Made by a program: the position numbers and the translations under genes
The notes under the pieces: generated by a model
What the model saw: the letters and a program-made list of their open reading frames with translations, nothing else
Told to the model about the DNA's origin: nothing
Database searches by the model: none
Shown here: piece after piece, positions 6,100 through 55,604 of the stretch
How the letters are laid out: every line of letters starts with the position of its first letter
How positions within the stretch are numbered: position 1 is the stretch's first letter
NCBI GenBank assembly: GCA_963809485.1
Contig: CAWEJX010000004.1
Location: forward strand, 32,001-96,000
Direction: 5' to 3'
Origin: an uncultured Acidobacteriota bacterium
Lineage (GTDB): Bacteria > Acidobacteriota > UBA6911
DNA: 64,000 nucleotides

Positions 6100-6174
6100 G
6101 GAGGCAGGCTTTCGAACCCTTGAGTCGGCGAGCCAATCCCAACGCCTCAAAGGCTCCAAGGATGAATTCTTTCT

Positions 6175-7422: not shown

Positions 7423-7476
7423 GGCTGTCCGCAAACCAGAGTGGAGACCATAAGCATCGGCGCCGGTATGGCCGCA

Positions 7477-7730
7477 GTCAGGCACATCCGGCAAAGCCGG
7501 AGGCTTGAAAGATTGGAACCGCTAAAAGCGGTTGGAGGAGTTACGCTGGTCTTGAACGCTGACCTACGCGGGCTAAAGCCGATGAGGCGCTTCCGGTCCC
7601 CGCCGAACGAATCAGCGTGCGTCAGCATTTATCAGCGTGCGTCAGCGTTAAAATTTATGGATAGGCCTCCAGAGCCGGTCTCAAAACGACTGTCGCGAGA
7701 TGCTCGCCGGCAATTTGAGACAGTCTCCGG
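7477..7730. repeat. Mosaic repeat: IS200/IS605-like end + AACGCTGA module + GAGACTGTCTCAAA-type inverted-repeat module
   Basis: 7477-7595 closely matches 21374-21490 and 45452-45570. 7612-7727 is close to the reverse complement of 37782-37898. Confidence 0.8.
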
Positions 7731-8456: not shown

Positions 8457-11400
8457 TTAGAAGTTGAATCGCAAAACCATCTGGCCCGTACGCTGCCCGC
8501 CGGTATTCATCCAGTTCGTGGCATAGCCGAAGCCGGAGGTCGCGTTGCCGTTCGCATCCGTTACCTGCGGAAGCAACATCGAATTGCTGGGCATAGGAAT
8601 ACGGGTTCGGTTGAACACGTTGCTCATTTCAACACGAATATTCAAGCTCATCTGTTCTCTGAACCGGAATACCCGTTCCAGGCTCAGGCTTTCCGTGGGA
8701 GCACGACGATACCGGTAATCCCCGTAAGCAGCGGAACCGTTGCCGAATGTGGCAGGAGGCGGCGTTTGCCACGCGTTCGGGTTCAGAATAAACGTCTTGT
8801 TGGGATCATAGTTGGAATTGATGTCCTGCGTATATAGCGGCTCGCCGGGCACCCGGGAGGAGTACGTAGCAGGCGCGCTGTAATAAGGAGAAGTGTTGCA
8901 TCCACCCAGAACGCTGAACGGAGCGCACAGCGACATCGTCTGAGCAACGTTAGGGTAATTGAGCGCAACCGGAGCCATAATCGGCAATCCGGATTGGTAA
9001 ACCAGGTAAGCCCCGATTCGCCAATCCTTCAATGTATAGCTCAGCGCTTTATTCACGCTAGCCCATGTGGGAGTCAGGTAGGTTGCGGTAAGGACAAAGC
9101 GATGCGGCACCGACGAAAAAGAGAGGCTCTTGTTCATCCTCAAATCATCCAGGTTATAGACCGCCGGATTGACCTGGAATGCCGAGTCCTGGGACTCTGT
9201 GCCCACGGTTGTTTCTTTCGACCAGACGTAATGAGCCTGCATGTCAAGCCCGTGAGAAAACCGTTTGGTCAACTTCAACTGCATGGAGTCGTACCAGGTG
9301 TTGCCCAGCGGCGCCCAGAGAACAAAAATGGTGCCGAAATGCGGGTACGGCCGAAGGGACTGCGACACAGTTCCTTTAAAGCCCGCATAGGGCTCTACCA
9401 GGTTGTGGGCCGCTTTCACCTCGGAGCTGACCGTATCAAACTGACTGATTAGCAGCATGCCATCATCTACGTTTCCGACACTCAGGTTGTGCTTTGCCAG
9501 AATCGCCGATGTAACACGGTTGGGGTCCGTAAGCGTTCCGCTGGCATTCCACCATGCCCCGCGGTTGCCAACGTAGGAAGCCTCCACGCTCAAATCCTTG
9601 GTAAGCTCACGCTGAATCCCGACGCTCCACATCAGCTGTCTCGGCGGGTATCCTGCATGCCGATCAATGGAGGTCATGAAGACAGCGCCCGGCGATTGCG
9701 GTGCCGATCCCGGGTCTTTGTCCGGCCATACCGGTGTAATCGGCACGCCGTCCTGAAGCAGAGAGATGGGATTGCCGTACTGGGTGGCAGGGCCATAGCG
9801 GTCGTCGGATCCGAGGCGCAGCGTCCACATTTCCAGCTGGGCCGTCTGCCCGTAGGAGACTCCAATGCCCCCGCGCAATACGGTCTTGGGCGTAATCTGG
9901 TATGCAAGCCCCAGACGAGGCCCGAAAGAATACGGGTAATTGCTGGCAAAATTGTTTCCCGGGCTTTCAAAGATCTTTGCGCCCGGAATATTGCCATAAG
10001 ACGGATTGGGAGTCTGATATCCGAAACTCGCGATGCGGCCGTATCCCTCTTTCAGATAGGTCTGGTAGTCATAGCGCAGGCCGTAGTCGATGGTAAGTTT
10101 GGGTGTCACCTTCCAGCTGTCCTGGGCGAAGAAGGCAAACGAGTGTTTCCCGATGTGGAAACTTGACTCAATGCCGATTTCGCCGTTGTTTACCTGGCCC
10201 ATCATGAAGCTGGCATAGGGAAATCCTATATTGCCGCCGCCGTAGTTAGTGGCATTCAGGTACGGAAGACCTGTCTGGGCAGGGCTGAAGAAGAACCAGC
10301 CGTTGCTGGGCGTTGTAGCTAGGGACGGATAGGATTCCACGCGCAATTCGGCGCCAAACTTGTAGGTGTGGTTGCCCTTTACCCAGTTGAGGGTTGCATT
10401 ACCCGTCGGCTTTTGCTGCCACTGCTTCTGCTGTGCAACCGGGCCTATGCCGTTCCCCTGGCCTGCGTCGGCCTTTCCGCCTCCCTGAGCCTGGTAGATG
10501 TTGTACATAGTCGGGTAAACACCCTTGGAAGTTCCGGTTAAGCCGAGCTCTGCTTCACTATCCCAACTCCCGAACCCCGGCGTGGGATCCCAGAACACGA
10601 AGTGCAGGAAGCCCCCGCCCAGGTGCAGCAGCACCGTTGGCGAAATCGTGTAGTCGAGGTTCACGCGCGCGGTATGCGCCGTTTCCCACAGATCCCGCTC
10701 TGTTGTGATCGGAGGTGCAAAACCGTCCGGGAAAGGCACGTATTGATCATTCAGCGACCAGTACCCGGAAATTTTCATTCTTGCAGCTGAGGTTGTGATC
10801 CATCTTGATCGAATAGATGGAGTTTTTCGTGTTATTGGAATATTGGTTCAAATAGTTGTTGACCGAGGAACTGTTCGTCGGCTGCGGAATGAAAGACTGG
10901 AGCTTCATCGCAACCGAGTCGAACTGATAGCCTGCCGGAGCTATATTGCCGGGGAATGGATCCCGGATAACATAGCTCTTGCCGTCGACAACTTCCGTTC
11001 GGGTCGTTTTAGGATCGTAAATCGCGCCATCCATGATCGGCCGCCCGAGCACGTCCGTGCCGAGCACTTTCCCCGTGTATAGCGCAGGCGAACTGAAATC
11101 GCCGTTGCGGTAGGCCATGGTGGGAACCGTGGTCTGGGTGCTGGTGCTCGTATTCAGCTTGTTTTGCTCAAAGCTGAAAAAGAAAAAGGTCTTGTCACGA
11201 CCGTCGTACATCTTGGGAAGGTATACCGGCCCTCCCACCGAAAAGCCCCAATCGTGCCGGCGGTCGCGCGGCCTGTAGTGGTTGTAAGGCTGCGCCGCAT
11301 TGAACATGGTTTCGTTTCTGAGGTATTCGAATGCGGTGCCGTGAAGCTCGTTGGTGCCCGACTTCATGGTCATGTTGAACATGCCGCCGCCCACCTGCCC

Positions 11401-12091
11401 GAACTCAGCCGCGAAGTTGCTGGTCTGGATGGCCGTTTCCTCGATCGAGTCCACGCTGGGCTGCGACATTCCGTAAGCTGCCGACCACGTCGTCTGGGTG
11501 GCATCCTGGCCTTCAATGCGGAGCGCCAGCGTTCCGGCCGGCATTCCGTTGACTCGCAGAGCGCCGAATATTCCTCCCGGCACCTGCATCTGCTGGCCGC
11601 CGGGAATCAGATTAACCGCCGAATAGGAATCGCGCATGCCGCCTGCGATGGACATGATCGGCAGGTCATTCAATCGTGACGACGAAACGTTGTGGCTCAG
11701 CTCGCCGCTTTCGGTCTTCAGCAAGCGGAGCGTCCGCGCTGACCGTGACCGTTTCGGTGATGTTCCCGACTTCCAGCGGAATGTCGATGCGCAGTGTCTG
11801 CGCGACCATGACGGTGATGCCGGTCCGGACATACTGCTTGAACCCGGTCACCGAGGCCGTGAGCTGATACGTGCCAACCGGTAATTGGGCAATCGTAAAG
11901 TTGCCCGTTGCCGAACTGGCCGCTTGATATACGGCACCGGTATCGAGGTTCTTCGCTTCAATCGGCACATTGGGGATCATGGCTCCTGCCGGATCCGTCA
12001 CCGTGCCGGTGATGGTACCCCTGTCGCTCTGGGCATATGCCGCCCCAAGGCACAGGAGTACGCACACTGATACAATTACAGTCAAACGCAT
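8457..12091 (-). CDS. TonB-dependent receptor, Oar-like with carboxypeptidase-regulatory-like N-domain (copy 1; frameshifts near 11730 and 10780)
   Basis: Three ORF pieces (11666-12160, 10747-11832, 8457-10778) together are collinear with the intact paralog at 12791-16435. Signal peptide, QSDRGTITGTV, C-terminal aromatic beta-signal RFNF. Confidence 0.9.
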
Positions 12092-12790: not shown

Positions 12791-15700
12791 CTAGAAGTTG
12801 AACCGCATGACCAGCTGGCCCGTCCGCTGCCCGCCGGCATTCTGCCAGTTCGATGCATATCCGAATCCGGATATCGCATCGCCGTTCGCATTCCTTACCT
12901 GCGGAAGCAACATCGAGTTGCTGGGCATGGGAATACGGGTACGGTTGAACACATTGCTCAATTCAGCACGAATATTCAGGCTCATCTGTTCCCTGAATCG
13001 GAATAACCGTTCCAGGCTCAGGCTTTCTGTCGGAGCCCGACGATATCGGTAGTCACCGTAGGCAGCGGAACCGGTGCCGAATGTGGCAGGCGGAGGAGTT
13101 TGCCACGCGTTCGGGTTGAGAATAAACGTCTTGTTGGGATCATAGTTGGAATTGATGTCCTGCGAGTACAGCGGCTCGCCGGGCACACGGGAGGAGAATG
13201 TAGCAGGCGCACTGTAAAAAGGAGAAGTGTTGCATCCGCCCAAAACGCTGAATGGCGCGCACAGCGAGAGCGTCTGAGCCACGTTGTACTGATTCAGCGC
13301 GACTGGAGCCATGACCGGGAGTCCGGACTGGTATATCAGGTAAGCGCCGATCCGCCAATCCTTCAACGCAAAGCTCAACGCCTTATTCACACTGGCCCAC
13401 GCAGGAGTCAGGTAGGTCGCCGTGAGGACAAAACGATGCGGCACGGACGAAAACGAGAGGCTTTTATTCATCCTCAAGTCGTTCAAGTCGTAAATAGCCG
13501 GGTTGACCTGGAAGGCCGAATCCTGAGACTCTGTGCCTACGGTCGTTTCCTTCGACCAGACGTAGCTGGCCATCATGTCAAGTCCGCGAGAAAACCGCTT
13601 GGTGAACTTTATCTGCATGGAGTCGTACCAGGTGTTGCCCAGCGGCGCCCATAGCACAAAGATGCTGCCGAAATGCGGGTACGGCCGAATCGACTGCGAC
13701 ACCGTACCCCTGAAGCCCGCATAGGGTGCCACCAGGTTTTTGGCCGCTTTCACTTCAGCGCTGACTGTTTCAAACTGACTGACCAGCAATGCGCCATCGG
13801 CCGCGTTTCCCACACTCATGTTGTGCTTCGCGAGAATCGCGGGCGTCACGCGGTTGGGATCGGTGAGAGTCCCGCTGGCATTCCACCATGCCCCGCGGTT
13901 GCCGACGTAGGAAGCTTCTATGCTCATGTCCTTGGTGAGTTCACGCTGAATGCCGACGCTCCACATCAACTGTCTCGGCGGGTATCCTGCGTGCCGGTCG
14001 ATAGAGGTCATGAAGACAGCGCCTGGCGACTGCGGTTGAGCTCCCGCATCATAGTTCGGCCATTCCGGAATACCTCCCGGCGGACCGTCTTTCAGAAGGC
14101 TGAATGCGGTGCCGTAGGTTGTGGCGGGACCATAGCGGACATCCGATCCGAAGCGCAGAGTCCACATTTCCAGTTGGGCCGTCTGGCCATAGGAAATGCC
14201 TATTCCCCCACGCAATACGGTCTTCGGCGTGATCTGGTATGCCAATCCCAGCCGTGGACCGAAAGAATAGGGGTAATTGTCGGCGAAGTTCTCGACATCC
14301 CTACCTTCAAATATCTGAGCGCCGGGCAAGTTGCCGAATGACGGGTTGGGTACGTCATAGCCGAAGCTCGGGATGCGGCCGTCACCCTTCAAATACGTCT
14401 GGTAGTCATAGCGCAGACCGTAGTCGATGGTGAGTTTGCGCGTCACTTTCCAGCTGTCCTGTGCGAAAAGGGCAAAGGAGTGTTTCCCGATGTGGAAATA
14501 GGATTCCTGACCGTTTTCGCCATGGTCTACCTGGCCCAGCAGGAAGCTGGCGTACTGAAATCCTATATTGCCTGCGCCGCCGCCGATGCTGGTTTGATTA
14601 AGGTACGGGAGGGCTGTCTGCGCGGGACTGAAGAAAAACCAGCCGTTGCTGGGCGTCGTAGCCAGGGACGGATAGGATTCCACGCGCAATTCAGCGCCGA
14701 ACTTGAACGTGTGATTGCCCTTGACCCAGTTGAGGGATGCAGTCCCCGTCGGCTTTTGCTGCCATTGCTTTTGCTGCGCCACCGGGCCCATGCTATTCCC
14801 CTGGGCAGACGGGTCATCCAGTCCGCCTCCCTGATTGGCCATCAGGTTGTACATGGTCGGGAAAACGCCCTTGACAGTCCCGGGCATGCCAAGCTTCTCG
14901 AGACTGTCCCATTCCCCATATCCCGGCACGGGATCCCAGAAGGTGAAGTGCAGGAAGCCGCCCCCCAGGTGGAGCAGCACCGTCGGCGAGATCGTGTAGT
15001 CGAGGTTCACGCGCGCGGTGTGCGCCGTTTCCCAAAGATCTCGCTCTGTCGTAATCGGGGGGCCGAAGCCATCCGGGAAGGGCACGTACTGATCGTTCAA
15101 CGACCAGTACCCGGAGAGCTTCATTTTGGAGCTCAGGTTGTGGTCCATCTTGAGCGAATAGATGGAGTTTTTCGTTTTATTCGAATACTGTCTCGAATAG
15201 TTGTTGGTCGCCGCGTTGTTTGTTGCCGCCGGAAGATAGTTCTGCAGCTTTAATGCCACAGGATCGAACGGGTAGTCCGAACGAATTATGTTGTTGGGAA
15301 ATGGATCCCTGACAACATAGCTCTTACCATCTACTACTTCCGTGCGAGTAGTGAGAGGATCATAAATCGCTCCGTCCATGATCGGCCGTCCCAGAATGTC
15401 CGTGCCGAGCAACTTTCCGGTATATAGAGCAGGATTGCTGAAATCGCCTGTGCGGTAGGCCATAGTGGGAATGGTCCACATATCGCTGACACTTGTATTC
15501 AGCTTGTTCTGCTCAAAGCTCCAATAGAAGAAGGTCTTATCGCGGCCGTCGTAGATCTTGGGAAGATAGACCGGCCCTCCTACCGAGAACCCCCAATCGT
15601 GCCGGCGGTCGCGCGGCCTGTAGTGGCTGTAAGGCTGGTGCGCATTAAACATCGTTTCGTTTCGGAGGTACTCGAAGACCGTCCCATGAAGCTCGTTGGT

Positions 15701-16975: not shown

Positions 16976-17797
16976 TTAGAAATTGAATCTCGCAACCAGC
17001 TGGCCGGTCCGCTGGCCGGCGGCGGGAAGCGGGTTGATGTATCCGAAACCGGACTGAGTGTTGCCGGTCGTGGCATTCCTGACCTGAGGAGCTGTCGCGT
17101 TGGTCGCGCTGGGATTCGGGATCCTCACGCGGTTAAAAGCGTTCATCAGCTCCATGCGAATTGACAGCGACATCCTTTCTCTGACGCGGAAGATCCGGGC
17201 CAGACTCAGGTTTTCGCTTGGAGCACGTCTGTACCTGTATTCATTCAGGTAGGCGGAGGTCACACCGAAAACTCCTGGGGCCGGATTGGTCCAGGCAGCA
17301 GGATTCAGCACAAACTCCTTGTAGGGATCGAAGCTGGAGCTGAGGTCCGTAGTGAACAGCGGTTCCCCCGGCACGCGGTTTGCATGCGACGAGACACCGT
17401 AGGGGGAAACTGCGGAACTGTTGCAGCCGCCAAACACGCTCTGCGGCGCGCAAAGGGACAGCAGGTTGGTCAGATTGGGCGAGGTTTGCGCGAAGGGAAC
17501 ATGGATTGGGGCTCCCGATTGATAGTTCAGAACTGCCCCCAATTGCCAATTGCTGATTACGGCCGACAGGATTTTGTTCATGTTGGCAAATCTGGGAATG
17601 GTGTAGTTGGCGGTTGCCGAACTGACCGTCTGATACACGGCGCCGGTTTCCGTATTCTTCGCTTCAATGGGCACGTTCGGAATCATGGCGCCTGCCGGAT
17701 CCGTAACTGTGCCCGTGATGGTGCCCCTGTCGCTCTGGGCATAGCCTATCCCAAAACACAGAAGCGCACAGACTGATGCGATTAAGATCGAGCGCAT
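16976..17797 (-). pseudogene. Internally deleted TonB-dependent receptor (N-terminal ~68 aa fused in frame to C-terminal ~200 aa)
   Basis: Start matches the paralog N-termini and end matches their C-termini (YRYRRAP...RFNF). Junction at ATANYTIPRF (~17597-17615). Confidence 0.8.
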
Positions 17798-21057: not shown

Positions 21058-21373
21058 ATCGTCACGTCTCCCATCCGCTTGAGGTCCTGCCTGGGCCTCG
21101 CGGAATAATAAACCATTCGGCCGCTATCATGTCAGTTGTGATTCAATTCCGTCGGGCAAGCAGGGCGGAATAAACCAGAAAAGCAGCTTATTGAAGCATA
21201 GAAAAATGTATTAAGGCAGCTCCATCTTCAGGATAATTTAACCCTTAAGCTAAACATATTTCTGCATTTAATGTCAAGTTTGCCGGACAGATTTCAGGAA
21301 GCCATCGAGGGCAGACAGATACCCGGGGAACAATCTCGGCAGTTGCATGATTCGGGGAGCAAGACAGGTATGA

Positions 21374-21612
21374 GTCAGGCACCTCCGGCAACGCCGGAGG
21401 CTTGAAAGATTGGAACCGCTCAAAGCGGTTGGAAGAGTTATGCTGGTCTTGAACGCTGACTTACGCGGGCAAAAGCCGATGAAGCGCTTCATCGGCTTTT
21501 GCTCGCCGACCCTCGCCGAACAAATCGGTTTGTCAGCGTACCTCAGCGTTTCAAAATACGGAGCTGTCAAACTCTATGAGTCCCCCGGCAGAGCTGTGGG
21601 TTTACCAATAGA
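21374..21612 (-). mobile_element. Non-autonomous IS200/IS605-like element (both hairpin ends, palindromic cargo)
   Basis: Subterminal hairpins CCTCCGGC-AAC-GCCGGAGG and CCCCCGGCAGAGCTGTGG. On the minus strand it starts after TAAT and ends in TGAC. No transposase inside. Confidence 0.7.
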
Positions 21613-21725
21613 ATTATTAACAGTTGCTGCCAGTACAGGCGTATACACACCACCTGCTACCCTGACCCTGGCGGGCGGTCCGTTTCTCGCGTAGCTGTAA
21701 ATAAAGCAGGATGCCTGGACCTTTT

Positions 21726-22675: not shown

Positions 22676-24055
22676 CTATTCCTCCGCAGAGTCGAAATAA
22701 TGGTTGTAATAGATCCTCTGTGCCGGGATTCCGAATCTCTCCCGAGTGCAGTTTGTCAAAAATGGTCCGGGCCGCTCTTCGATCGTCTGCTGCGGGACAA
22801 ATCCAAGCGTCTGGTTCAGCTTGTCAAAAGAGACGCGGTAGTCACGGGCATCAAGATTGGAATTATCCCTGGTAATGGGTATGCCGCCCAGCGAGGTCCC
22901 GATGATTTCGGCGACCTCGTCGATCTGATAATTCTGGCCATCCGAGCCGACATTGAAGACCTGGTTTCCCACATCCTGCAGGTTCGCTTCAAGGCATCGG
23001 ACGTAGACTTCAGCGGCATCCTCCACTCCGAGGAGCGGGCGCCACTGCCGGCCGCCAAAGACCTGGATTTTTCCGTCCACAAACGACTTCATGCTCATCG
23101 TGTTGACGACCAGGTCAAACCGCATGCGATGGCGAGTATCCATACAGAGTTCCCATCCGCAGAATGGTCGGGCTGAAATACTCGTCCCCCATGCCGAGGA
23201 TGATCTTTTCGGACTCGATCTTGGTGCGCGCATAAAGAGAAACCGGATTCAGCGGCGCATTTTCATCGAGCAGGTCTGCGCCTATCCCATACACGCTGCA
23301 GGTGGATGCATATAAAAACCGGTTGATATGGTGCAGTTTGCTGGCGGAAGCCAGCGCCTGGGCAGCCAGCACATTGGTTTCGATCGTTTCCGTCGGTCGG
23401 ACTTTCGATGCAGGATCGCCGACTATGGCGGCCAGCAGGACGACGGCGTCCGTCTCGGAAAGCGAACTCACGCAGGTATGAATGTTGCGCAAATCCCCTT
23501 CGATGATTTCGAGGTTTTCGTCTCCGCGAAAGCGCTCCAGCGACCGGCGGCCGTAGATAAAACTGTCCAGGATTCGCACCCGGAATCCGCGGCGGAGCAG
23601 CTTTTCGCGTCAGCACACTGCCCAGATAGCCCGCTCCCCCCACAACCAGGACGCGCTTGTCCGGCCGGTCGGCGCTGGAATCAAGTTCCGAAAAGCCGTG
23701 TAGCCGGTTAAAATCATCGACTGCCAGAACTTCCACGAATGCGCCCATCTGCCGAAACGACCGGAAGGAACCGCACGCCGTTCAATTCCATGTCGACAAT
23801 CATGCTGTCGGCTTTTTTCCGGTTGCTGAGAGATTCTTCGGTGAGCTTGTAGACATGCTTCATCGGACAGCGCCGACTTCCTCTTCGCCTGCGCTCCGCT
23901 GATCAGCAGGCGGCGAAGATCCGCAATGAAATGCCTGCCCAGGTACACGCCCTTTTCGTCCAACACAAACGCGCGGTCGAACGGGCTTTGCTCGATAAGC
24001 TGTATCGCCTTTGGATCGATGTGCCTCTTTTCAGACAGACAACAGGATATTTCAT
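22676..24055 (-). CDS. NAD-dependent epimerase/dehydratase with N-terminal CBS-like region (frameshifted)
   Basis: VLVVGGAGYLGS, AAIVGDPA, ASTCSVYG, YARTK, RFDLVVN. N-terminal pieces AFVLDEKGVYLG and FLPVVSADGRIREV resemble CBS motifs. Confidence 0.8.
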
Positions 24056-24201
24056 TCCATCCACTCGATTTTAAAACCTTTTACGCGGAGACGCGGAGAG
24101 CGCGAAGTAATAAATCCCGAACTTTGCAGGCTCCTCGCCTCCGCGTGAGATTCCTTGCGCAACCCAATGGAACCTTGCAGCCCGCAACTGTTTTGTCCAT
24201 T

Positions 24202-29026: not shown

Positions 29027-30388
29027 CTATTTTCTGTAAACTCCGTATTCTTTCACTGCCGCCACCATTGCCCGAAGGTTCTCCAGCTTCGGATTGTCGG
29101 CTACACATCCGGCGGCAAGAATATATCCACCCCCTTTGCCGCAGGTTTCAATCAGTTTACGGCAGCGCTCTCTGACATCCACGGCGGATCCGGTCACCAT
29201 CAGTGAGGAAGGCACATTCCCCTGAATACAGAACTTGTCGCCCAGTACCTTTTTTGCCTTGGCCATGTCGGTTTGATCAAACCACCAGACCACGGTTCCT
29301 TTGGGAAAATCCTTGACCGTTTCCAGACGGGTTTCGTACCCGCCCTCGGCAAACATCAGGCATATGATTCCCTCGTTGATGAGAGCATCCATCACCTTTT
29401 TCAGAGACGGCCAGTAAAAGGTGTTAAATTGCTTTTCAGACATCCAGCCGTCGGCGCCCTTGTGCAGCGGGAAAATCACCGTGACGGCTCTGTTGATGAC
29501 GGGATGGTGCAGGATGGAGTAAATGATCAATTCCGTCATCACATCGAGGGCCTTCAGCAGCTTGTCGGGACGGCGGAACATATCCATCATGATGCCCTTG
29601 GTCCCCCGCAATGTATCGCCGATGGCATCAAACGGGGCGACATTGAGCAGACCCATGGTCGACGGGAAACCGTGCGCCGGGCCAAAGCCCATCAGCTTTT
29701 TGCTGATTTCGTTCCTTTTTTGGAGGTCTTTCCCGGCATCGATCATCCGTTGCAGCGATTCCTGCACCTGAGGCAGAGCGAGCGCCATAATTTGGCCCGT
29801 GGGGATCTCAATAATATCAGTCAGCGGAGAAATCATTCGGAAACTCTCGAAAGACCCGAAAATTCTGGGCAAATACGTCCGCAGCCAATAGTCGGAAGGA
29901 TCGCGAACGAGATCGTCGTATTCCTCCACTTTCATGTATTCGCCTTCGACAAACTGGTATTCGGGAGCATCGATACTCAGGCCGTGGCCGGGCCAGGCAT
30001 ACAGTTTGTAGTCGAGCAACTCCAGAGCCTTTCCCGGCGCAACCATAGGCACGGCGAAATACTCCAGTTCTTCCGAATACTTTTTGTTGAACGCGTTGCA
30101 GGCTTCGATCCCCTTCTCGATATTGTACATGGCTTCATGCGTGCTCACGCCGTGAAGTATGAGGGGCAGGTGCCCGACCGGCAGGCTGATGGGAACCCGG
30201 TCGGGTTCCTTCACATTGAAAACATCCACAGTCCTTTGAGCCCTTATCTTGTAAGCGTTGGCTGCATCTGCGCTGACAAATTTGATGTCGGTCGGATTAA
30301 GGAAACGATTAAGCCGATATTCCCTTTTTTGCGCGGGCGTAAGTTGGGTCCAGTTCTCAGGCAAACCGGACTGCATTTTATCCGTCAT
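29027..30388 (-). CDS. Uroporphyrinogen decarboxylase / MtaA-CmuA family protein
   Basis: EPDRVP, APFDAIGDTLRG, MDMFRRPD, LHKGADGWMS, CIQGNVP, GGGYIL. Confidence 0.88.
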   Translation of the reverse strand: MTDKMQSGLPENWTQLTPAQKREYRLNRFLNPTDIKFVSADAANAYKIRAQRTVDVFNVKEPDRVPISLPVGHLPLILHGVSTHEAMYNIEKGIEACNAFNKKYSEELEYFAVPMVAPGKALELLDYKLYAWPGHGLSIDAPEYQFVEGEYMKVEEYDDLVRDPSDYWLRTYLPRIFGSFESFRMISPLTDIIEIPTGQIMALALPQVQESLQRMIDAGKDLQKRNEISKKLMGFGPAHGFPSTMGLLNVAPFDAIGDTLRGTKGIMMDMFRRPDKLLKALDVMTELIIYSILHHPVINRAVTVIFPLHKGADGWMSEKQFNTFYWPSLKKVMDALINEGIICLMFAEGGYETRLETVKDFPKGTVVWWFDQTDMAKAKKVLGDKFCIQGNVPSSLMVTGSAVDVRERCRKLIETCGKGGGYILAAGCVADNPKLENLRAMVAAVKEYGVYRK

Positions 30389-31557
30389 GGTCACTCTCTC
30401 CTTCAGGTCTTAAAACCTGCAATTTATATGAATCCAGCGGAATCCCGGATCTGAAGCCTGCCAGAAAAAATTTTCAGGCACAGATCTGCCGCGATTTGTG
30501 TCCCGGGAAGCACGTACCGTCATCCCGGATCTCAAGTTTATAGCAAAAGCCTCTCTACTGCTCACTCCATTGTTAGCTCAGATAAATATCACCGCACCGG
30601 CTTGAAATGCTTCTGCAGCCAGCCTGACACTAGAACGTGCCTCGAATGCGCCTCCCGGCTTCACCTGAGCCCCTTGTCCCTCTACGCCGCATTCCTCTTA
30701 TTTTGCTTAGTTTATAGCAGGTTACTCATTCTTTTTACAATCACATTAAACAAACTGCTGCAATCGGGCGCAACGGGAAGGGAGTCCTGGAACGTATGTT
30801 TGAGTCGATTTGCGGCAACTGATGCTCTCAGGTCAAAAGACAGGCATACCATGGACGGCTGCAATTTTCACGGATCAAGGCAACAAATGCGCGCAAGGCC
30901 TCCAACTGTAAGTGCCAATCCGATAGTGATGAGGGCCGACGGTTTTCGCCTGCAAACCAGGCCGGCTTGCACTCCCGGCAGCTTTTCCTGTTGAAGCGGC
31001 CCGGGCGGACATGCCCAGATCCGGGTCTTCCCAGAAAATCCCGTGAATAATTCGGAAAAGGTTTTTGGGGAAGTCAAAGTGTCGAATGTTCTTACACCTA
31101 AGTTTACAACTGCAATGTATAGAAATAGTAACTGCTTAATCAGATGGTGAAATCGAATTCAAACAATTCCCTGCATAAAATGGAAAAATCTTTTACATTT
31201 TTGAAATCGCATTGCGTCTGTTCGCCTGCCAACTTCAGCGATACAATAAAAAAAAGGGGGATTAATTCACATATAGAAGGAGATACGGCCAGTGACTTCG
31301 GGGGCCTGTCGCGGCTGGTATTATATTTGCTTATCTTTGGGGAAATTTTTACGGATGCAGCGGATTTTTCTCCCAAGTGGGGCAGCCGGGAAGTTGATCG
31401 AGGCTGAGGGGATGTACCCTCACCCGTCCCCGGCCCGTCAATCCCGACTCCCCCACATACTTTATATCGGCTGCACGCCTATTCGCAGTAGCATCCTGGT
31501 TTCTGCAAATATGCTGCCGGAAGGTTCTCCGATTTCCCAAATTGCCGGGCCCATCCT

Positions 31558-35093: not shown

Positions 35094-36821
35094 ATGAAAT
35101 GGCATCTGTGTGCCGCTTTAATCGCGGCTCTATGTCTGAGCCTTTTTTGCAGCCTGCCGGCTCAAAACAATCAGGCTCAGGCACAAGGCAAGATGGTTGG
35201 GCAGAAAATTACCGTGCTCAGCCCAATGGGCAAACCGCCTGCGATTGAGCTGAAACCGATGGCGCCGCGGCTCAGGCTCGCTGGAAGGCAAAACGGTGTA
35301 TCTCGTCAACGACGGCTACCTGGGAACGGACCTTCTCCTTGGGGAGATGGAAGCCTGGTTCAAGGCCAATATGCCGAAAGTCAACATCGTTTACCGATCT
35401 GAAGGGCGGCGGAGGTTTTACTGCCGAAGATCCCAAATTGTGGGCAGAAATCAAGGAAAAGGCCGACGCGGTCGTCATGGGGATGGGGCATTGAAGTCTC
35501 TGTGTGTCGGCGGTCGTCGCACACTGCATCAATATTGAATCAAAACTTGGCGTACCCACGGTTCCCCTGATCACTTCGCGAATTTTACACCCAGGTTAAA
35601 ACCCATCACACCATCCAAAAAGGCATGCCCAATCTCCGGGTCACCTATCTCATATCGCCGGTTTGGGGCAAAACCGCCGAGCGCCTGCGCAAGGAAATCG
35701 TGATGAAGAGCCCGGTAAGCGGAAAGATGATCATGCAGGAGATCGTCGAGGGACTTACGCAGGCCCTTGAGCGCCGAAGAGAAGAAAACGGGCACCATCG
35801 AGCAGTCCGCGGGCCCGCGAGGCTTTCACCGATACCCCGGATAAACTTCAGCAGATGTTTATGGAAAAGAGGATGACCGACTACATGCCGATCATCCTGC
35901 CGACGGAAGAGAAAGGTCGCCGAAATGCTGAAAGGGACCAGCCACCGTCCCGACGAAGTGGTCGGCAAGATGGCGGCGCACACGGCAATGGGCGGCGCCG
36001 ACAATGTCGAGGTTTTTGAGCACTGGTCCTACACGGTGAAGACGGTGGCCATCAACGCGGTCATGGCCGGGTGCAAGACCCGAATACATGCCCGCTGCTG
36101 CTTGCCGTGGCATCCACAGGCAAAGAGGCCATTTCGGTGTCGGACAACTCCTTTACCGAAGGTCTGATCATCAACGGGCCCATCCGCGATGAAATAAAAC
36201 TCAATTACGGCTTGGGCGCTATGGGGCCGTTCAGCCAGGCGAATTCCACGATCGGCAGAGCATGGAACCTGCTGTCCATCAATGCCGGGAATTGCGGGAG
36301 AGTCGGCACAACCTACATGGGAACTGTCGGAAATCCCATGAACTGGAACAACGTCATTATTGCGGAGAACGAGAAAGATTCTCCCTGGCAACCCTACCAC
36401 GTTCGAAAAGGCTTTAAACCGTCCGACAGCGTCGTGACCTTGTGCGAAGGATGGGGAGTCCTGTCGGCCAAAAATTCAAAATACAGCGTATGGCAGAAGG
36501 AGATGGACTTCCCGGGCATCGTCAAGAAGATCGTCAACGACCAGGACGGACTTTTCGGAGCTCTGGTGGTCCTCAATCCTACGGTTGCGAATTACATCAA
36601 GGAAGCGGGCTACGATACGGTGGAGAAGTTTACGCAATATCTGTTGGCACCCGCAGAAGGGCAGGCAACCCCAGAAGCCGGCTCGCCAAACCGGCGCAAA
36701 GGGCCGGGCTTCGGGGCGTCTGCAGGTAAACATCGTTGTGACGGGAGGATCGAACAACAATTACTGGAGCTATGGCGGAATGGCGTGCCGTCAGAGCGTC
36801 CCGATCGATAAGTGGCGTTGA
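35094..36821 (+). CDS. UGSC-family selenoprotein (Sec TGA 35492-35494, motif H-U-S-L-C), signal peptide, several apparent frameshifts
   Basis: ADAVVMGMGH-TGA-SLCVSAVVAHCINIESKLGVPTV is collinear with the paralog at 50144-51769. Downstream MLKGTS, AINAVMAG, IINGPI, ANSTIGRA, AENE, PWQPYHV. Confidence 0.75.
35502..35524 (+). promoter_or_regulatory. Bacterial SECIS-like hairpin
   Basis: GTGTG-T-CGGC[GGTC]GTCG-CACAC. G-initiated apical loop begins 18 nt after the TGA. Confidence 0.65.
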
Positions 36822-41642: not shown

Positions 41643-42662
41643 CTAATCTCCACTGAGACCGCCGGGCCAGGGCGAGTTCAGATGATAGGAAACGGATGGG
41701 CCGATCATTTCCACACGGCGGATTTTGCCGTTTTCGATGAGAAACGCTTCCGTTACCAGGATGCTGGATGGGCGGTTAAAGCCTTTGAACTCGTAGGGAC
41801 GGCCGTCGGAAAGAACGCCCCTGCTCACTGTGCCCTGGTCAAACACCGCATGAGCCCATACGATCCCTCGCTCCTGGTCTACAACAGGAAAGCGGCGGCC
41901 GTGGATGCTCTGGACCACAAAATATATCCCCAGCTTAAATTGCGACATGCAATCCATGGAAAAGAGATTGACGGCATCCGCGGGCTGATTGGATGGCCGC
42001 GGAACGTTGGTGGTTGCCGCTCCATTCTCAATCCGATGGCAGTCGTCGGTGAAAGGATAGGTGCCTGTACCGTTGATACCCTTGCCATCGTTCCTTTGAA
42101 GGCCCGTAAAATAGCCGTCGGCAATGGCGATGAGCTCCTGACGGGATAAACGCTGCGCAGGAGGAATCGATTTAAACCACATTGCCTCCGGCTTAAAGGG
42201 TTTGTCCATATCCGCGATGCTGTTCGGGCCGCCTCCGCCGGGCCTGAAGAAAACGCTTTCAATCTCGCTGATGCGGCCCAGCTCGATGCGCAGCCGCAGG
42301 CTCATCAGCAAAGGGGCGCCCGCTTCCCGCATCGTGCCCATGAAAGCCACCTGGCCGAACTCCGGGTCGGCAAAAATGTGCGTGTAGTTGCCCCGGCCTT
42401 CCGCGGTTTTCCAAAAACCGTCGCCGACTTCGACGATCTGATCGTTTTCCGTGTACACAACATCCCTGGAAAGCGGAAGCCGTCCGGGGTTATGGGCTAC
42501 AACTGCGGCAAGATACTGATCCACCAGGTCTTCCATGCATGCACGGTTGCAGTTCAAAGCAATCGGACCGGTGGATGCATCAGCTTCCGGAGAAGGATCA
42601 CCGATCAGGATTCCAGCGGCGATAAGAGCGATGAAACCAAAGATAACACCAATTGAACGCAT
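41643..42662 (-). CDS. Exported hypothetical protein with two related (SnoaL/NTF2-like) halves
   Basis: Signal peptide; VDQYLAA..YTEND versus ADGYFTGL..RIENG internal similarity. AGGAGG RBS. Confidence 0.65.
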   Translation of the reverse strand: MRSIGVIFGFIALIAAGILIGDPSPEADASTGPIALNCNRACMEDLVDQYLAAVVAHNPGRLPLSRDVVYTENDQIVEVGDGFWKTAEGRGNYTHIFADPEFGQVAFMGTMREAGAPLLMSLRLRIELGRISEIESVFFRPGGGGPNSIADMDKPFKPEAMWFKSIPPAQRLSRQELIAIADGYFTGLQRNDGKGINGTGTYPFTDDCHRIENGAATTNVPRPSNQPADAVNLFSMDCMSQFKLGIYFVVQSIHGRRFPVVDQERGIVWAHAVFDQGTVSRGVLSDGRPYEFKGFNRPSSILVTEAFLIENGKIRRVEMIGPSVSYHLNSPWPGGLSGD

Positions 42663-45451: not shown

Positions 45452-45734
45452 GTCAGGCGCCTCCGGCTTTGCCGGAGGCTTGAAAGATTGGAACCGCTCA
45501 AAGCGGTTGGAGGAGTTACGCCGGTCTTGAACGCTGACTTACGCGGGCAAAAGCCGATGAGGCGCTTCCGATCCCCGCAGGGGCCAACGCTCCTCGCTGG
45601 ACAGTTTTCTGCGGCTTTTGCTCGCCGACCCTCGACGAACAAATCGGCGTTTGTCAGCGTATCTCAGCGTTTCAAAAAGCGGAGCTGTCAAACTCTATGA
45701 GTCCCCCGGCAGAGGCGGTGGATCTACCATTCAC
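45452..45734 (-). mobile_element. Non-autonomous IS200/IS605-like element
   Basis: Same ends as 21374-21612 with longer internal cargo. Confidence 0.7.
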
Positions 45735-49850: not shown

Positions 49851-50143
49851 CCCTGCTGCTCATTGGCAGGGAACGCCGCGCCGAGGAACGCAATCAAGCA
49901 TTTGAATGCGTATCCGCCATGCATAATACCTCCCCGCCCCGCAGGGCTTTTGGGCAAGCCACAGATTTCTACAATTCCAGGCCGGGTATCAAAAAAATTC
50001 GTGAAATCCCGGTCTGCTTTTTTATATGATTTCCATTCATATTCCCGTAAAACAGTCTTGGAATTCTTCGAGGCTACATGTCTTCATAGTCCAGGACCAA
50101 ACTCCGAGGATTGGAGGCTCGAAGATGCTTAAAGGAGAACACC

Positions 50144-51769
50144 ATGAATGTACTGATACGCTGTCTGCCTGTTTTTGCTTTGATGGTGAACCTGTTCCCC
50201 GCTGCAGCCGCCCAGACAACACTGGAGGTGCTGAATCCGATGGGGTCGATTGAGCCGCCCAAAACCTACGGGCTCTCCCCTCGGGTTGCGGATCTGGCCG
50301 GCAAAAGGATCGCCCTCATGCACAATAACAAACCCGGCGCTTCCAATCTTCTCGATGCCCTGGAAACGCTGTTGAAGGCGAAGTACCCCGGCGCAAGCTT
50401 TTCGCGCGGATTTCAGACGCAGCCGGTAAAGCCGCCAAAGGATCCGGACATGTACAAAAAGGCGGCGGCGGCAAGCGACGTCTTCATTTTTGCCATGGGA
50501 GACTGAGGAACCTGCACGTGGTGGGGTTCCCACCACACGGTGCAGATGGAAAAGCTGGGCGTTCCCGGAGTGCTGCTCGCCAGCTCGCAGTTCCTTACGG
50601 ATGCAAGATCAGCCGCTGCAGACTGGGCGATGCCCGGCATACGCATCGTCGCTATCCCATCGGACAAATGGTACCGGTTTCGCGGAACGGTGAATGAAGT
50701 GCGGCCGCTCGCGGAGGCAGCCCTGGACCCGATCATCAAAGCTCTCACCACTCCCTTGACCGCGCAGGAGGCAAAGCCGCCCCAGCAAACGAAGGTAGAG
50801 CTTCCTCCGATCAAAATAACCGGAGCAGGCTATGCCGACTCCGTTGAGAAAATGAATGCGCTTTTCCTCAAAAACCATATGAGCGACGGGCTGCCCATTG
50901 TGCCTCCGACCCGGGAGGCCGTTGACGCAATGCTCAAAGGCACCTCGCGTTCCCGCGACGAGGTCATCGGCAAGGTCCCCATGAAGTTCGGCATTGCCAC
51001 GGTTGAGAAGATCGCGATCAATGCCGTGATGGCAGGCGCCAAACCGGAATATTTTCCCGTAATCCTTACGGCGATGGAGGCATTCTGCTCCGGTGAGTTC
51101 TGGCACATGATGGGATCCTCCGGCAGTTTTACGCTCATCATCATGGTAAACGGACCTATCGCGAAAGAGATCGATATGAACTCAGGGATCGGTTTTCTGG
51201 GCGACTGCTGGCGCGCCAACAGCACGATCGGGCGCAGCGTGCGGCTTGCGACGCGCAACATCGGCCACACCTGGCCGGCGGAAAACGACATGGCCCTGGT
51301 CGGCCGTCCATCGGCTCACACCTTTTTCACATTTGCCGAAAACGAAGAAATGAATCCATGGGAGCCCTACCACGTGAGCATGGGCTTTAGGAAGGAAGAC
51401 AGCACGGTGACGATGACGAAGGTGGGATCGTATTTCGGGGCTTCAGGTCAAACGGTAGGAGGCGGCGCTGTCGCAACCTGGACCGCTCAGTCCATCCTGG
51501 ATGGGATGGCGGGACACGCAACATCCAAGGGCGGCGGCTATTACACCTGGTTCCACCCGGAAGGCGCGCAGGCGCTGGTGGATGCCGGCTTCACCAGCCG
51601 CAGCAAAATACAGGAGTGGTTTTCCAGCAAAACCGGAGTCTTGCCCAGGAATATATCGGTCGCCGTCACCGGCGGCGTGCCGGGGTACTCGATGATATGG
51701 GGTTACGAACTGGATTCCCATGTGACCAAGAAGATTCAGGGCGCCACTTTAACCAAAGCCGGCCGCTAA
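50144..51769 (+). CDS. UGSC-family selenoprotein (Sec121, TGA 50504-50506, motif D-U-G-T-C), signal peptide, 541 aa
   Basis: ORFs 50111-50506 and 50540-51769 are in the same frame and separated by one TGA: FAMGD-U-GTCTWWGSHHTVQMEKLGVP. C-terminal SDGLPIVPPT, KIAINAVMAGAKPEY, ANSTIGR, FAENEE. Confidence 0.9.
50512..50545 (+). promoter_or_regulatory. Bacterial SECIS-like hairpin
   Basis: CTGCAC-GTGGTGG[GGTTC]CCACCAC-ACG-GTGCAG. Apical loop begins 19 nt after the TGA. Confidence 0.8.
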
Positions 51770-51776
51770 TTTCCAG

Positions 51777-51849
51777 GGGGACAGTCACCGGTGTCCCCGA
51801 AAGCGTCTGCAAAAGAGCTTTCGTTTAAAGGGGACACTGGTGACTGTCC
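51777..51849. repeat. REP/REPIN-like inverted pair (GGGGACA family)
   Basis: GGGGACAGTCACCGGTGTCCCC ... GGGGACACTGGTGACTGTCC. Related units at 27802-27823 and 55559-55604. Confidence 0.75.
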
Positions 51850-51927
51850 TCCTTGCCTTCCCTATGATCTCCGATACTTGAGGTTGATGGATGCCTCGAT
51901 CGATAAATCTGCATCCGGGAGGACATC

Positions 51928-52980
51928 ATGCATATTCCGATCATCCGGACATCATTTCTTGCGGGCCTTGCGATGTTCATGGCGATTGCCGCCGCGAACT
52001 CCGGCGATGGGGAGGAGATCCCGCCTTCGCTGGAAAAGCGGCTCGAGGCGATTGAGAAGAAGGTCGACGCCGCTCAATACACCTTCGACCAGATCCTCAA
52101 GCGCATCGACGACGTGCTGTGGTTTGAGCGTGTCGGCGACCTGGCGTCGGTGGACAAGGTTTACATCACTTCGCAGCCCGATCCGAAGGGTGAAGAAACC
52201 TACGGCATCAAAAACGAAAGGCACCCCTTTAAAATCTGGACCTACCTCTTCGTGCCCAGGAATCTCGACCGCTCGAAAAAAGCGCCGCTGCTGGTCCTGC
52301 CGCACGGGGGCGTGCACGCGGACTTCACCACCTACCACACCCACATTGTCCGCGAGCTGATGGACCTGGGATACGTGGTGGCGGCGCCCGAATACCGCGG
52401 CTCTACCGGATACGGCAAGGAATATCAGCAGGCCATCGACTACGGCGGGCTCGAGATCGACGACAGCATCGCCGCCCGCGACTGGGCTGTCGAAACGCTG
52501 CCCTTCGTCGATCCCCGTCGCGTCGGCATTATCGGATGGAGTCATGGCGGGCTCATCGCGCTTATGGCAGTGTTCGACCACCCGGATAAATTCCAGGTAG
52601 CCTATGCAGGGGTCCCCGTATCGGATCTTGTGGCGCGGATGGGATACTCGGACACCGACTATCGGGATGAATTCTCAGCCAAGTATCACCTCGGCAAAAC
52701 GGCCAACGAGGACGTCGAACTGTACCGCCGGCGGTCGCCTGCATGGAACGCCGAAAAACTTCGCACCCCCCTTCTCATTCACACGACCACGAACGATCGC
52801 GATGTTAATGTGATCGAGGTGGAGCACCTGATTGCCCAGCTCAAAGCAGCAGGCAAGGAATTTCAATACAGGATATACAAGGATGCTCCCGGCGGGCACA
52901 GCTTCAACCGTACGGACACAGCGCTGGCCCGTGAGTCGCGCAACGAAATTTACGCCTTCCTGGCGAAATATTTGAAGTAG
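51928..52980 (+). CDS. S9 family (prolyl oligopeptidase-like) peptidase, exported
   Basis: PHGGVH, YRGSTGYG, GWSHGG nucleophile, NDRDV, GGHSF. Confidence 0.9.
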   Translation: MHIPIIRTSFLAGLAMFMAIAAANSGDGEEIPPSLEKRLEAIEKKVDAAQYTFDQILKRIDDVLWFERVGDLASVDKVYITSQPDPKGEETYGIKNERHPFKIWTYLFVPRNLDRSKKAPLLVLPHGGVHADFTTYHTHIVRELMDLGYVVAAPEYRGSTGYGKEYQQAIDYGGLEIDDSIAARDWAVETLPFVDPRRVGIIGWSHGGLIALMAVFDHPDKFQVAYAGVPVSDLVARMGYSDTDYRDEFSAKYHLGKTANEDVELYRRRSPAWNAEKLRTPLLIHTTTNDRDVNVIEVEHLIAQLKAAGKEFQYRIYKDAPGGHSFNRTDTALARESRNEIYAFLAKYLK

Positions 52981-55558: not shown

Positions 55559-55604
55559 GGGGACAGCCACCAGTGTCCCCCGGGGGACACTGGTGGCTGT
55601 CCCC
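55559..55604. repeat. Perfect 46-bp palindrome (two head-to-head GGGGACA-family REP units)
   Basis: GGGGACAGCCACCAGTGTCCCCC|GGGGGACACTGGTGGCTGTCCCC. Confidence 0.85.

Follow-up and report, generated by a model that had tools for sequence, protein, structure and literature searches.

The gene considered here lies at 50144-51769 on the + strand of a 64,000-nucleotide (nt) stretch of contig CAWEJX010000004.1 from an uncultured Acidobacteriota bacterium (hereafter the window) and is, to judge from its sequence and that of its relatives, very likely one selenoprotein gene rather than two genes. We hold it to be highly probable that the locus encodes a 541-residue protein with selenocysteine (Sec) at position 121, that this protein joins a UGSC domain to a second, C-terminal conserved domain (C-domain), and that it belongs to the known UGSC family; it is likely to be exported, and its Sec and a nearby Cys would form a redox pair. 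Two open reading frames (ORFs) share one frame on this strand, 50111/50144-50506 and 50540-51769, and are separated by a single TGA at 50504-50506; reading this codon as Sec (U) yields a 541-residue protein that runs ...FAMGD-U121-G-T-C124-TWWGSHH... through the junction. The same-frame ORFs, the lone TGA and the D-U-G-T-C motif, on which an original prediction made by a model from the sequence alone had been built, are all present. The coordinates of the gene and its features are collected in Table 1.

Codon 121 and the split gene

The Sec reading of the TGA, as originally predicted, is strongly supported by sequence comparison, which combines UGSC homology across the TGA, a codon conserved as TGA at 73 of 94 aligned sites, Cys at this position in relatives, a hairpin specific to Sec forms and the use of TGA as an ordinary stop elsewhere in the window. 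The match to Pfam PF24696 (UGSC; E = 4.3e-30, 105.5 bits against a cut-off of 25) covers positions 1-171 of the 172-position model and residues 28-202 of the protein, and is unbroken across U121. A scan of genomes, one per species, gave 587 confirmed relatives, from which 79 loci were kept. When the read-through protein was compared by tBLASTn with these 79 loci and the window, the alignments passed through codon 121 in all 79 loci and residue 121 could be aligned at 94 sites, comprising the 73 TGA codons (two of them in the window), one TGC (locus L006) and 20 others that specify Asn (12), Ser (3), Ala (2), Leu (2) or Met (1). The best match per locus has TGA in 63 of the 79, with the motif D-U-G-[ST]-C-T, and the titles of the TGA loci name Acidobacteriota, Dehalococcoidia and other Chloroflexota, Phycisphaerae (Planctomycetota), Thermodesulfobacteriota, "Deltaproteobacteria" and Bacillota, so that no fewer than five named phyla are represented. 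Of the 15 full-length homologues from the database, P0039 and P0041 have Cys here, in a CxxC motif, and the rest have Thr, Ser, Asn or Leu. The U-G-T-C of the window protein keeps the UxxC pattern with Thr in place of Ser, as do the members of its own eight-row clade. At the position of Cys124, 98% of the 65 Sec forms in the main family have Cys and 87% of 15 non-Sec forms have Gly; in these 15 relatives Sec is replaced by Asn, Ser or Ala, and Cys124 by Gly.

A quick maximum-likelihood tree was built from 89 rows (69 Sec, 1 Cys and 19 other), leaving out L039 and L055, which have extra stops, the window's frameshifted paralogue and matches shorter than 400 residues. Four changes of state at codon 121 suffice to explain this tree, with the Cys form and a 15-row non-Sec clade both nested among Sec forms. 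The window protein groups with L001 and then with copies from one Phycisphaerae genome and from Dehalococcoidia genomes (starred support), not with most Acidobacteriota, and the Acidobacteriota metagenome-assembled genome CAYYTC01 alone holds three paralogues (L001, L002 and L007), which suggests, as far as such a tree can be read, that the fused family has a history of transfer between phyla and of repeated duplication.

If the TGA were a true stop, the locus would hold either two genes, a 120-residue UGSC fragment and a 409-residue protein starting at GTG 50540, or a single gene inactivated by a nonsense mutation or by an error in sequencing. Gene callers do predict exactly these two pieces in many metagenomes, and other genes of the window are broken (the frameshifted paralogue at 35094-36811, a split TonB-type receptor and an epimerase-like gene, all described below). 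However, 63 of 79 loci, spread across phyla, have their TGA at this very codon, which excludes a repeated accident; a stop here would cut the UGSC domain mid-way, and relatives carry Cys at codon 121. The second piece also lacks a ribosome-binding site of its own: neither a Shine-Dalgarno sequence nor any other purine-rich ribosome-binding site is found upstream of GTG 50540, which itself lies inside the lower stem of the hairpin described below, and that hairpin is conserved after the codon in the TGA forms only. A true stop is on these grounds very improbable. Read-through with insertion of Trp, Cys or Gly by near-cognate decoding, or under a reassigned code, would equally give the full-length protein, and the absence of Sec machinery from the window would fit it, with no observation pointing to it specifically. 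TGA is the terminator of 10 of the 27 Pfam-supported ORFs of the window, so the code is not reassigned; the non-TGA redox forms have Cys at this position in what is a UxxC/CxxC motif, the family is a recognized selenoprotein family, and tRNA-SeC genes, found by ARAGORN, lie a few kilobases from the homologue in three related loci (L037, 5599-5697; L047, 7021-7119; L062, 7371-7467). This explanation, too, is very improbable. Fifteen ORFs around the tRNA-SeC genes in L037 and L062 gave no SelA or SelB domain; in L062 the adjacent rhodanese gene has an in-frame TGA at its active site, where its L041 homologue has Cys.

The original prediction also held that standard annotation would split the fusion of the UGSC domain with a domain bearing DGLPIVPPT and AINAVMAG motifs, and a large protein collection shows this to be the case. 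A word-indexed search found 2805 relatives there, of which the nearest are 407-414 residues long and match only the last 75-76% of the query, corresponding to what follows the TGA; the UGSC domain is included in full-length relatives, which have 526-630 residues. The first 120 residues are likewise stored separately, with 77 matches of ~120-130 residues, one of them the window's own, and several ~120-residue and 409-residue pieces come from contigs of equal length. All names seen for these pieces read "hypothetical protein". On the NCBIfam UGSC equivalog NF041046, the window protein scores 90 bits over model positions 2-121 of 147 and does not pass; other fused UGSC forms score 43-93, and the standalone protein P0370, of locus L069, just passes at 125.7.

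Table 1. Features of the selenoprotein locus, in window coordinates
Feature	Position	Strand	Basis
Sigma-70-like promoter match: GTGAAA, 18-nt spacer, TATGAT	50001..50030	+	consensus scan, 9/12 (weak evidence)
Shine-Dalgarno-like AAAGGAG, 6 nt ahead of ATG 50144	50131..50137	+	direct sequence reading
Whole coding sequence, 541 residues and TAA stop, with codon 121 TGA read as Sec (very likely)	50144..51769	+	read-through translation, two-sided homology
Signal-peptide-like N-terminus, residues 1-23: R6, hydrophobic core, AAA before Q24	50144..50212	+	inspection
UGSC domain, residues 28-202	50225..50749	+	Pfam PF24696
In-frame TGA, putative Sec121	50504..50506	+	sequence, translation, aligned relatives
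SECIS-like hairpin: 6-bp lower stem, 3-nt bulge on the 3' side, 8-bp upper stem, GUU loop	50512..50545	+	folding, recoding, alignment
TGC, Cys124, partner in UxxC	50513..50515	+	translation
C-terminal conserved domain, residues ~225-541, probably "Unknown_1" of the 2008 paper	50816..51766	+	alignments, profile
Two palindromic 24-nt units, 31 nt apart, just past the stop	51775..51853	.	related units at 55559-55604

The hairpin downstream of the TGA

A bacterial selenocysteine insertion sequence (SECIS) of the Escherichia coli fdhF type, which is SelB-dependent, is a stem-loop located just 3' of the UGA with a G in a small apical loop. The hairpin after codon 121 resembles this type in being a stem-loop within the coding sequence, 3' of the UGA, with a small loop that starts with G about 19 nt on, and in a class of distant paralogues the loop is even GGUC; it differs in that no Rfam model matches it, in that the hairpin sequence varies between subfamilies of the same protein, and in that a role for SelB is putative. 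In the lower stem CTGCAC (50512-50517) pairs with GTGCAG (50540-50545), and in the upper stem GTGGTGGG (50518-50525) pairs with CCCACCAC (50529-50536), leaving a loop of GTT (50526-50528), or GGTTC with the last pair open, and a bulge of ACG (50537-50539). In the version with the open pair, which was that of the original prediction, the loop beginning with G starts at 50525, 19 nt after the A of the TGA, and both the hairpin and this spacing were found exactly as predicted.

Comparative evidence that this hairpin is a SECIS is good, while that for the exact lower stem is weaker. Considered alone, the fold is only modestly unusual, with a minimum free energy (MFE) of -23.7 kcal/mol (z = -1.68) that is equalled by 13 of 200 dinucleotide shuffles. 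A recoding test, in which the 45 nt (15 codons) after codon 121 were folded along with 200 synonymous versions generated from the codon usage of the gene itself, is more discriminating: only 2 of the 200 recodings are as stable as the native sequence (-23.3, against a mean of -15.5). Across the relatives, stability within the best 5% of recodings was found at 34 of 73 TGA sites and at 1 of 21 non-TGA sites, and TGA and non-TGA sites differ by the Mann-Whitney test in both MFE (p = 3e-7) and z-score (p = 4e-4), although these p-values overstate independence because the compared sites are related sequences. The hairpin is confined to the Sec forms and is absent from the non-Sec forms.

The hairpins fall into three classes. 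The window's own class comprises 45 sequences (29 distinct), in which the upper stem is 90.5% paired and is recovered by RNAalifold as well; no variation is seen in the 5' arm across all 45 sequences, even at the third positions of the Thr (ACG) and Gly (GGT) codons, where changes would be synonymous, and the lower stem is conserved solely in the window's four-member clade. A second class, from 21 loci (Desulfobacterota-like, Dehalococcoidia, Bacillota and some Acidobacteriota), encodes a different peptide after the UxxC motif and has a hairpin of other sequence, with GCCGGC arms, about 2 nt further downstream. In this class 95% of cells are paired, 3 of 6 pairs are changed on both sides, none of 500 column shuffles reaches the covariation score, every slid register is lower in both percentage paired and covariation score, and RNAalifold predicts the hairpin independently. 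The third class, with a CGGC/GUCG stem and a GGUC loop, is that of the distant paralogues, including one in the window.

Several points weigh against the account given at the outset and should be set beside this evidence. The genes selA, selB, selC and selD were not found in the window, which gave no tRNAs and none of these genes among its 36 large ORFs; the window protein falls under the NCBIfam UGSC equivalog cut-off (90 versus 125); and the presence of several apparently frameshifted genes means that local sequence quality in the window is not beyond doubt. As for the hairpin, no compensatory change occurs in the window's own class (29 distinct rows), one pair is a G-G mismatch in 22 of these 29 rows, and the support from this class is synonymous-site invariance, which shared descent can also produce. 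The sequences used in the statistical comparisons are related to one another, as noted with the p-values above, and Rfam has no match in the window at gathering score, nor any SECIS family around the site at E <= 10. Finally, the C-domain that the redox pair is taken to serve has no invariant Cys and is equally conserved in the 15 relatives that lack both Sec and Cys124, so that its activity would not strictly depend on the pair.

Probable export, architecture and proposed chemistry

The protein begins with MNVLIRCLPVFALMVNLFPAAAAQ, in which inspection reveals an n-region with one Arg (R6), an h-region (LPVFALMVNLF, within a hydrophobic core of 12 residues) and Ala at -3 and -1, the A-A-A being followed by Gln24; residues 1-23 contain no RR and hence no twin-arginine (Tat) motif, while such motifs occur in L007 and in both copies of L062. 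As a proxy for export, the most hydrophobic 11-residue stretch ahead of the LNP core was required to reach a Kyte-Doolittle value of at least 1.8, at sites away from contig edges. By this measure 47 of 69 Sec sites have a hydrophobic N-terminal segment, among them 34 of 42 in Acidobacteriota, and none of the 21 non-Sec sites does. The core in relatives reads VTLEV(M/L)NP, and in relatives from Acidiferrales the segment ends in AxA-Q directly before VTLEVMNP. A distant relative of 1254 residues has an LPXTG anchor, whereas Dehalococcoidia forms have no hydrophobic segment, so members of the family act on either side of the membrane.

Export of the window protein is likely on this sequence evidence; of the earlier claim, the signal-like N-terminus is there and is of a kind seen among relatives, and export itself is plausible rather than proven. 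The N-terminal segment might instead remain uncleaved, leaving a genuine selenoprotein in the cytoplasm or anchored in the membrane. The family does have cytoplasmic members, a hydrophobic N-terminus being absent from 22 of 69 Sec and all 21 non-Sec relatives, and in L069 both the rhodanese and the standalone UGSC protein have the look of anchored membrane proteins, not of cleaved ones. Yet n-, h- and c-regions of the ordinary kind can be recognized in the window protein, with Ala at -3 and -1, the segments of its relatives vary but always end right before the conserved core, as cleaved signals do, and the neighbors of the Acidiferrales genes are of periplasmic types (cytochrome c and pyrroloquinoline quinone (PQQ) dehydrogenases). 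An uncleaved or cytoplasmic protein is an unlikely alternative to export.

The C-domain gave no Pfam match at E <= 5 and, among 39 members of the domain, no Pfam family common to more than two; NCBIfam also gave no match. Searches of the PDB by sequence or profile returned chance-level matches only, whether for the whole protein, the N-domain or the C-domain, and the ESM Atlas has no entry for the C-terminal part (table 11 reading) or for homologue P0041. The domain is nonetheless widespread: a profile of the 39 members matches 6031 representative clusters at E <= 0.001 and 1734 at E <= 1e-30. Elsewhere it occurs as standalone proteins of ~350 residues and as tandem doubles of ~715 residues. 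In P0197 (39% identical, E = 3e-54) the C-domain is followed by a UGSC domain that ends exactly at ...GSGD, and in P0159 (43% identical, E = 4e-55) it is followed by the catalytic domain of a ferredoxin-thioredoxin reductase. With the order seen in the window, these make three different joins to modules of dithiol type, which argues that the C-domain uses such a module.

The best-supported mechanism that we infer is one in which Sec121 and Cys124 form a redox pair serving the C-domain outside the cytoplasm. UGA codon 121 would be decoded as Sec during translation, with the hairpin that starts 6 nt downstream acting as a bacterial SECIS to recruit SelB and Sec-tRNA(Sec). The N-terminal 23 residues would be a signal peptide of the secretory (Sec) type, placing the mature protein outside the cytoplasm. 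This mature form would consist of two domains, the UGSC domain, in which a beta-strand would end and a helix begin at Sec121 and Cys124, and the conserved domain of ~320 residues. The pair may cycle between selenol/thiol and selenenylsulfide, with nucleophilic attack by Sec and resolution by Cys124, and the substrate is presumably small and held by the C-terminal domain.

A different role for the pair should be weighed against this one, in which the C-domain would be a non-redox enzyme or a binding protein and the UxxC motif regulatory or concerned with binding metal or selenium. The even conservation of the C-domain with or without Sec and Cys is in its favor, as are the entire sets of tandem paralogues that lack the redox pair (L058 and L075) and the location within the UGSC domain of 9 of the 11 positions at which Sec and non-Sec forms are consistently different. 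Against it stand the repeated joining of the C-domain to dithiol or selenol-thiol modules in three arrangements and the retention of costly Sec in 69 of 89 tree rows. A UxxC motif at a strand-helix junction is moreover the usual form of redox-active selenoproteins. The table in PMC2398784 agrees with this. A non-catalytic pair seems to us doubtful, if by no means far-fetched, and a redox pair serving the C-domain is preferred.

Possible distant relatives of the UGSC domain were found in the selenoprotein B group. In Grd and Prd enzymes Sec attacks as the nucleophile and Cys resolves. When 44 UGSC domains were compared with NCBIfam at E <= 1, TIGR01917 (glycine reductase selenoprotein B) was matched by 16 (best E = 5e-4), GrdF by 13, GrdH by 6, the general selenoprotein B family by 6 and PrdB by 2. 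The window protein's own best match, to GrdF, scores 10.5 bits against a cut-off of 800 (E = 0.17), with the Sec region falling on positions 347-394 of the 435-position model. Neither Pfam GRDB (E <= 1) nor the PDB yielded a match, and no pyruvoyl partner of the GrdE/PrdA type is present among the 36 large window ORFs or the scanned neighbor families. The window protein thus shares with GrdB, GrdF, GrdH and PrdB a UxxC motif (PMC2398784 lists PrdB with UxxC) and weak but repeated profile matches of the Sec segment; it differs in that these matches are far below every cut-off and in that the Grd and Prd enzymes are cytoplasmic. The resemblance, if real, would suggest by analogy that Sec is the nucleophile and Cys124 the resolving residue, and is a lead toward function and not a result or a sign of membership. 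With exported thiol/selenol oxidoreductases the protein shares a signal-like peptide and a putative redox-active pair; no thioredoxin-family profile in Pfam or NCBIfam matches it.

Relation to known families and genomic context

The window protein is a fused, probably exported, soil-type member of the known UGSC family, and the kind of gene is not new. A "UGSC-containing protein" was listed as a selenoprotein of unknown function in 2007 (PMC1976440), and in the 2008 ocean survey (PMC2398784) UGSC ranks among the most abundant selenoprotein families, with 255 sequences, a UxxC motif and 21 Cys homologues; that paper also describes a UGSC protein fused with a conserved domain called "Unknown_1", which occurs alone as well. 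Reviews from 2022 and 2026 (table in PMC13188914) still list the family without a function, and no functional study of it was present among the literature matches listed. The C-domain is probably this "Unknown_1", an identity that rests on motifs matched by eye to a read in Dataset S1 of PMC2398784, which has GD-U-GSCT followed by ...GWTDGLPIVPPTEEAV... and ...KIAINAVMAGALP..., carrying the DGLPIVPPT and AINAVMAG motifs. Another read in that dataset resembles the window's distant-paralogue class. The fusion found in the window has therefore very probably been in print since 2007-2008. The gene had been predicted to be a hidden selenoprotein; it is indeed hidden by split annotation, whereas the family, and very probably the fusion, had already been published. 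Exported selenoproteins have likewise been reported before (bioRxiv 10.1101/2022.07.06.499078 and 10.1101/2025.11.18.688581).

Compared with the UGSC family as described (Zhang and Gladyshev 2007/2008; PF24696; NF041046), the window protein has the same domain, the same Sec after a ...GD strand and the same UxxC motif, and it is likewise of unknown function and likewise missed by gene callers (PMC1976440, PMC2398784 and PMC13188914); it differs in reading U-G-T-C rather than U-G-S-C and in its length of 541 residues rather than ~150-210. It is 23% identical over 166 residues to the standalone UGSC protein of L069. The published UGSC/Unknown_1 fusion has the same order of domains, with UGSC first and then a domain that is also found standalone (~350 residues), and the motifs shared with the marine read were recognized by eye. 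The marine reads are fragments, and features of the present set are the putative export signals, a clade of Acidobacteriota from soil and sediment, and the gene neighborhoods.

Next after the gene in the Acidiferrales clade comes a cytochrome c gene (18 loci), with PQQ dehydrogenases (22) and a rhodanese-domain protein (23) nearby. A small exported rhodanese is encoded directly after the gene in L022, L041, L062 and L069, and a MauE/DoxX membrane protein is also encoded in the last three. These exported rhodaneses include those at 6167-6790 of L062 (C-D-U, with an in-frame TGA), 11765-12400 of L041 (C-D-C) and 5107-5586 of L069 (C-G-C). In L041 and L069 a short UGSC ORF is halted by an in-frame TGA; that of L069, read through at 5587-6228, would be a standalone UGSC selenoprotein with a hydrophobic N-terminal segment and the motif AD-U-GIC, and the L069 cluster as a whole has two UGSC fusions besides this standalone UGSC gene, the rhodanese and the MauE/DoxX protein. 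Paralogues often stand in tandem: 40 further copies were counted within 5 kb. The neighbors of the cytoplasmic forms are of other kinds: URO-D-like methyltransferases, ABC-transporter binding proteins, aldehyde:ferredoxin oxidoreductases, molybdenum hydroxylases and glycyl-radical enzymes.

No homologue of the relatives' rhodanese, cytochrome c, PQQ dehydrogenase, MauE/DoxX protein or small downstream protein was found in the window. A URO-D-like gene at 29027-30394 (-) is 45% identical to the one that flanks cytoplasmic Dehalococcoidia homologues, and a 339-residue ORF at 41643-42662 (-) without a Pfam match is 40% identical to part of a ~640-residue upstream neighbor in Acidiferrales; these two lie 8-20 kb from the selenoprotein gene. 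A conserved operon for the window gene was considered and rejected, as the 92% identical copy L001 (CAYYTC01) has other genes on both sides. With flanks that differ in this way and the usual partners not close by, no operon can be claimed for the window copy. Similarity to L001 ends at 51798 and resumes at 55559, and the intervening 3.7-kb interval (S9 peptidase, membrane protein and DUF72) has no match in L001. Palindromic units of 23-24 nt, among them those of Table 1, read GGGGGACA...TGTCCCC and stand at both ends of this interval. A repeated intergenic element of ~130-200 nt occurs in the window at 7475-7603, 21373-21620 and 45488-45729, in L001 at 3479-3607, just upstream of its gene copy, and in L007 at 14664-14875; one copy sits at the other break in synteny with L001. 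Of sigma-70-like sites, two were found by consensus scan in 49900-52000, against 0.9 expected.

A distant two-domain paralogue, 24% identical to the selenoprotein and with a signal-like N-terminus, is located at 35094-36811 (+). An in-frame TGA at 35492 (GMGH-U-SLC) precedes a hairpin whose loop is GGUC, and the homology of this copy to the intact paralogues of L038, L054 and L078 switches frame at least four times, which marks it as a pseudogene or a stretch with insertion/deletion errors. A TonB-type outer-membrane barrel is split into two overlapping ORFs at 8457-11832 (-), a further TonB-type barrel fragment lies at 16976-17797 (-), and the nucleotide-binding motif of an epimerase-like gene at 23115-24080 (-) is out of frame. 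These broken genes point to gene decay or to assembly indels. Among 53 same-frame ORF pairs in the window, U-x-x-C occurs only in the selenoprotein gene among the contexts listed. One other same-frame TGA pair was translated, that of the epimerase-like gene, and it looks frameshifted.

Taken more broadly, the fused subfamily is a clean example of a selenoprotein cut in two by gene callers, and its position below the NCBIfam cut-off that would rescue it implies that in hundreds of genomes from soil and sediment the gene is replaced by a pair of spurious "hypothetical proteins". With 6031 C-domain clusters the family is large, and most of the members examined have Sec, while neither domain has a known function or a solved structure. 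Leads to a function are offered by the fusions to redox modules, the association of Sec with export, the rhodanese and DoxX/MauE neighbors and the faint resemblance to GrdB and PrdB. A bolder proposal, which we put forward as speculation and regard as improbable in its entirety, is that "Unknown_1" is a catalytic domain free of cofactors that draws its reducing or oxidizing equivalents from interchangeable dithiol or selenol-thiol modules (UGSC before it, UGSC after it, or one like ferredoxin-thioredoxin reductase), and that the exported Sec form, together with an exported rhodanese having Cys or Sec and a DoxX/MauE protein, makes up an extracytoplasmic system for sulfane sulfur or selenium in Acidobacteriota, some Desulfobacterota and Chloroflexota, with a Sec chemistry distantly derived from that of GrdB and PrdB. 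If this were true, the family would represent an undescribed catalytic domain and a selenium-dependent extracytoplasmic sulfur/selenium system.

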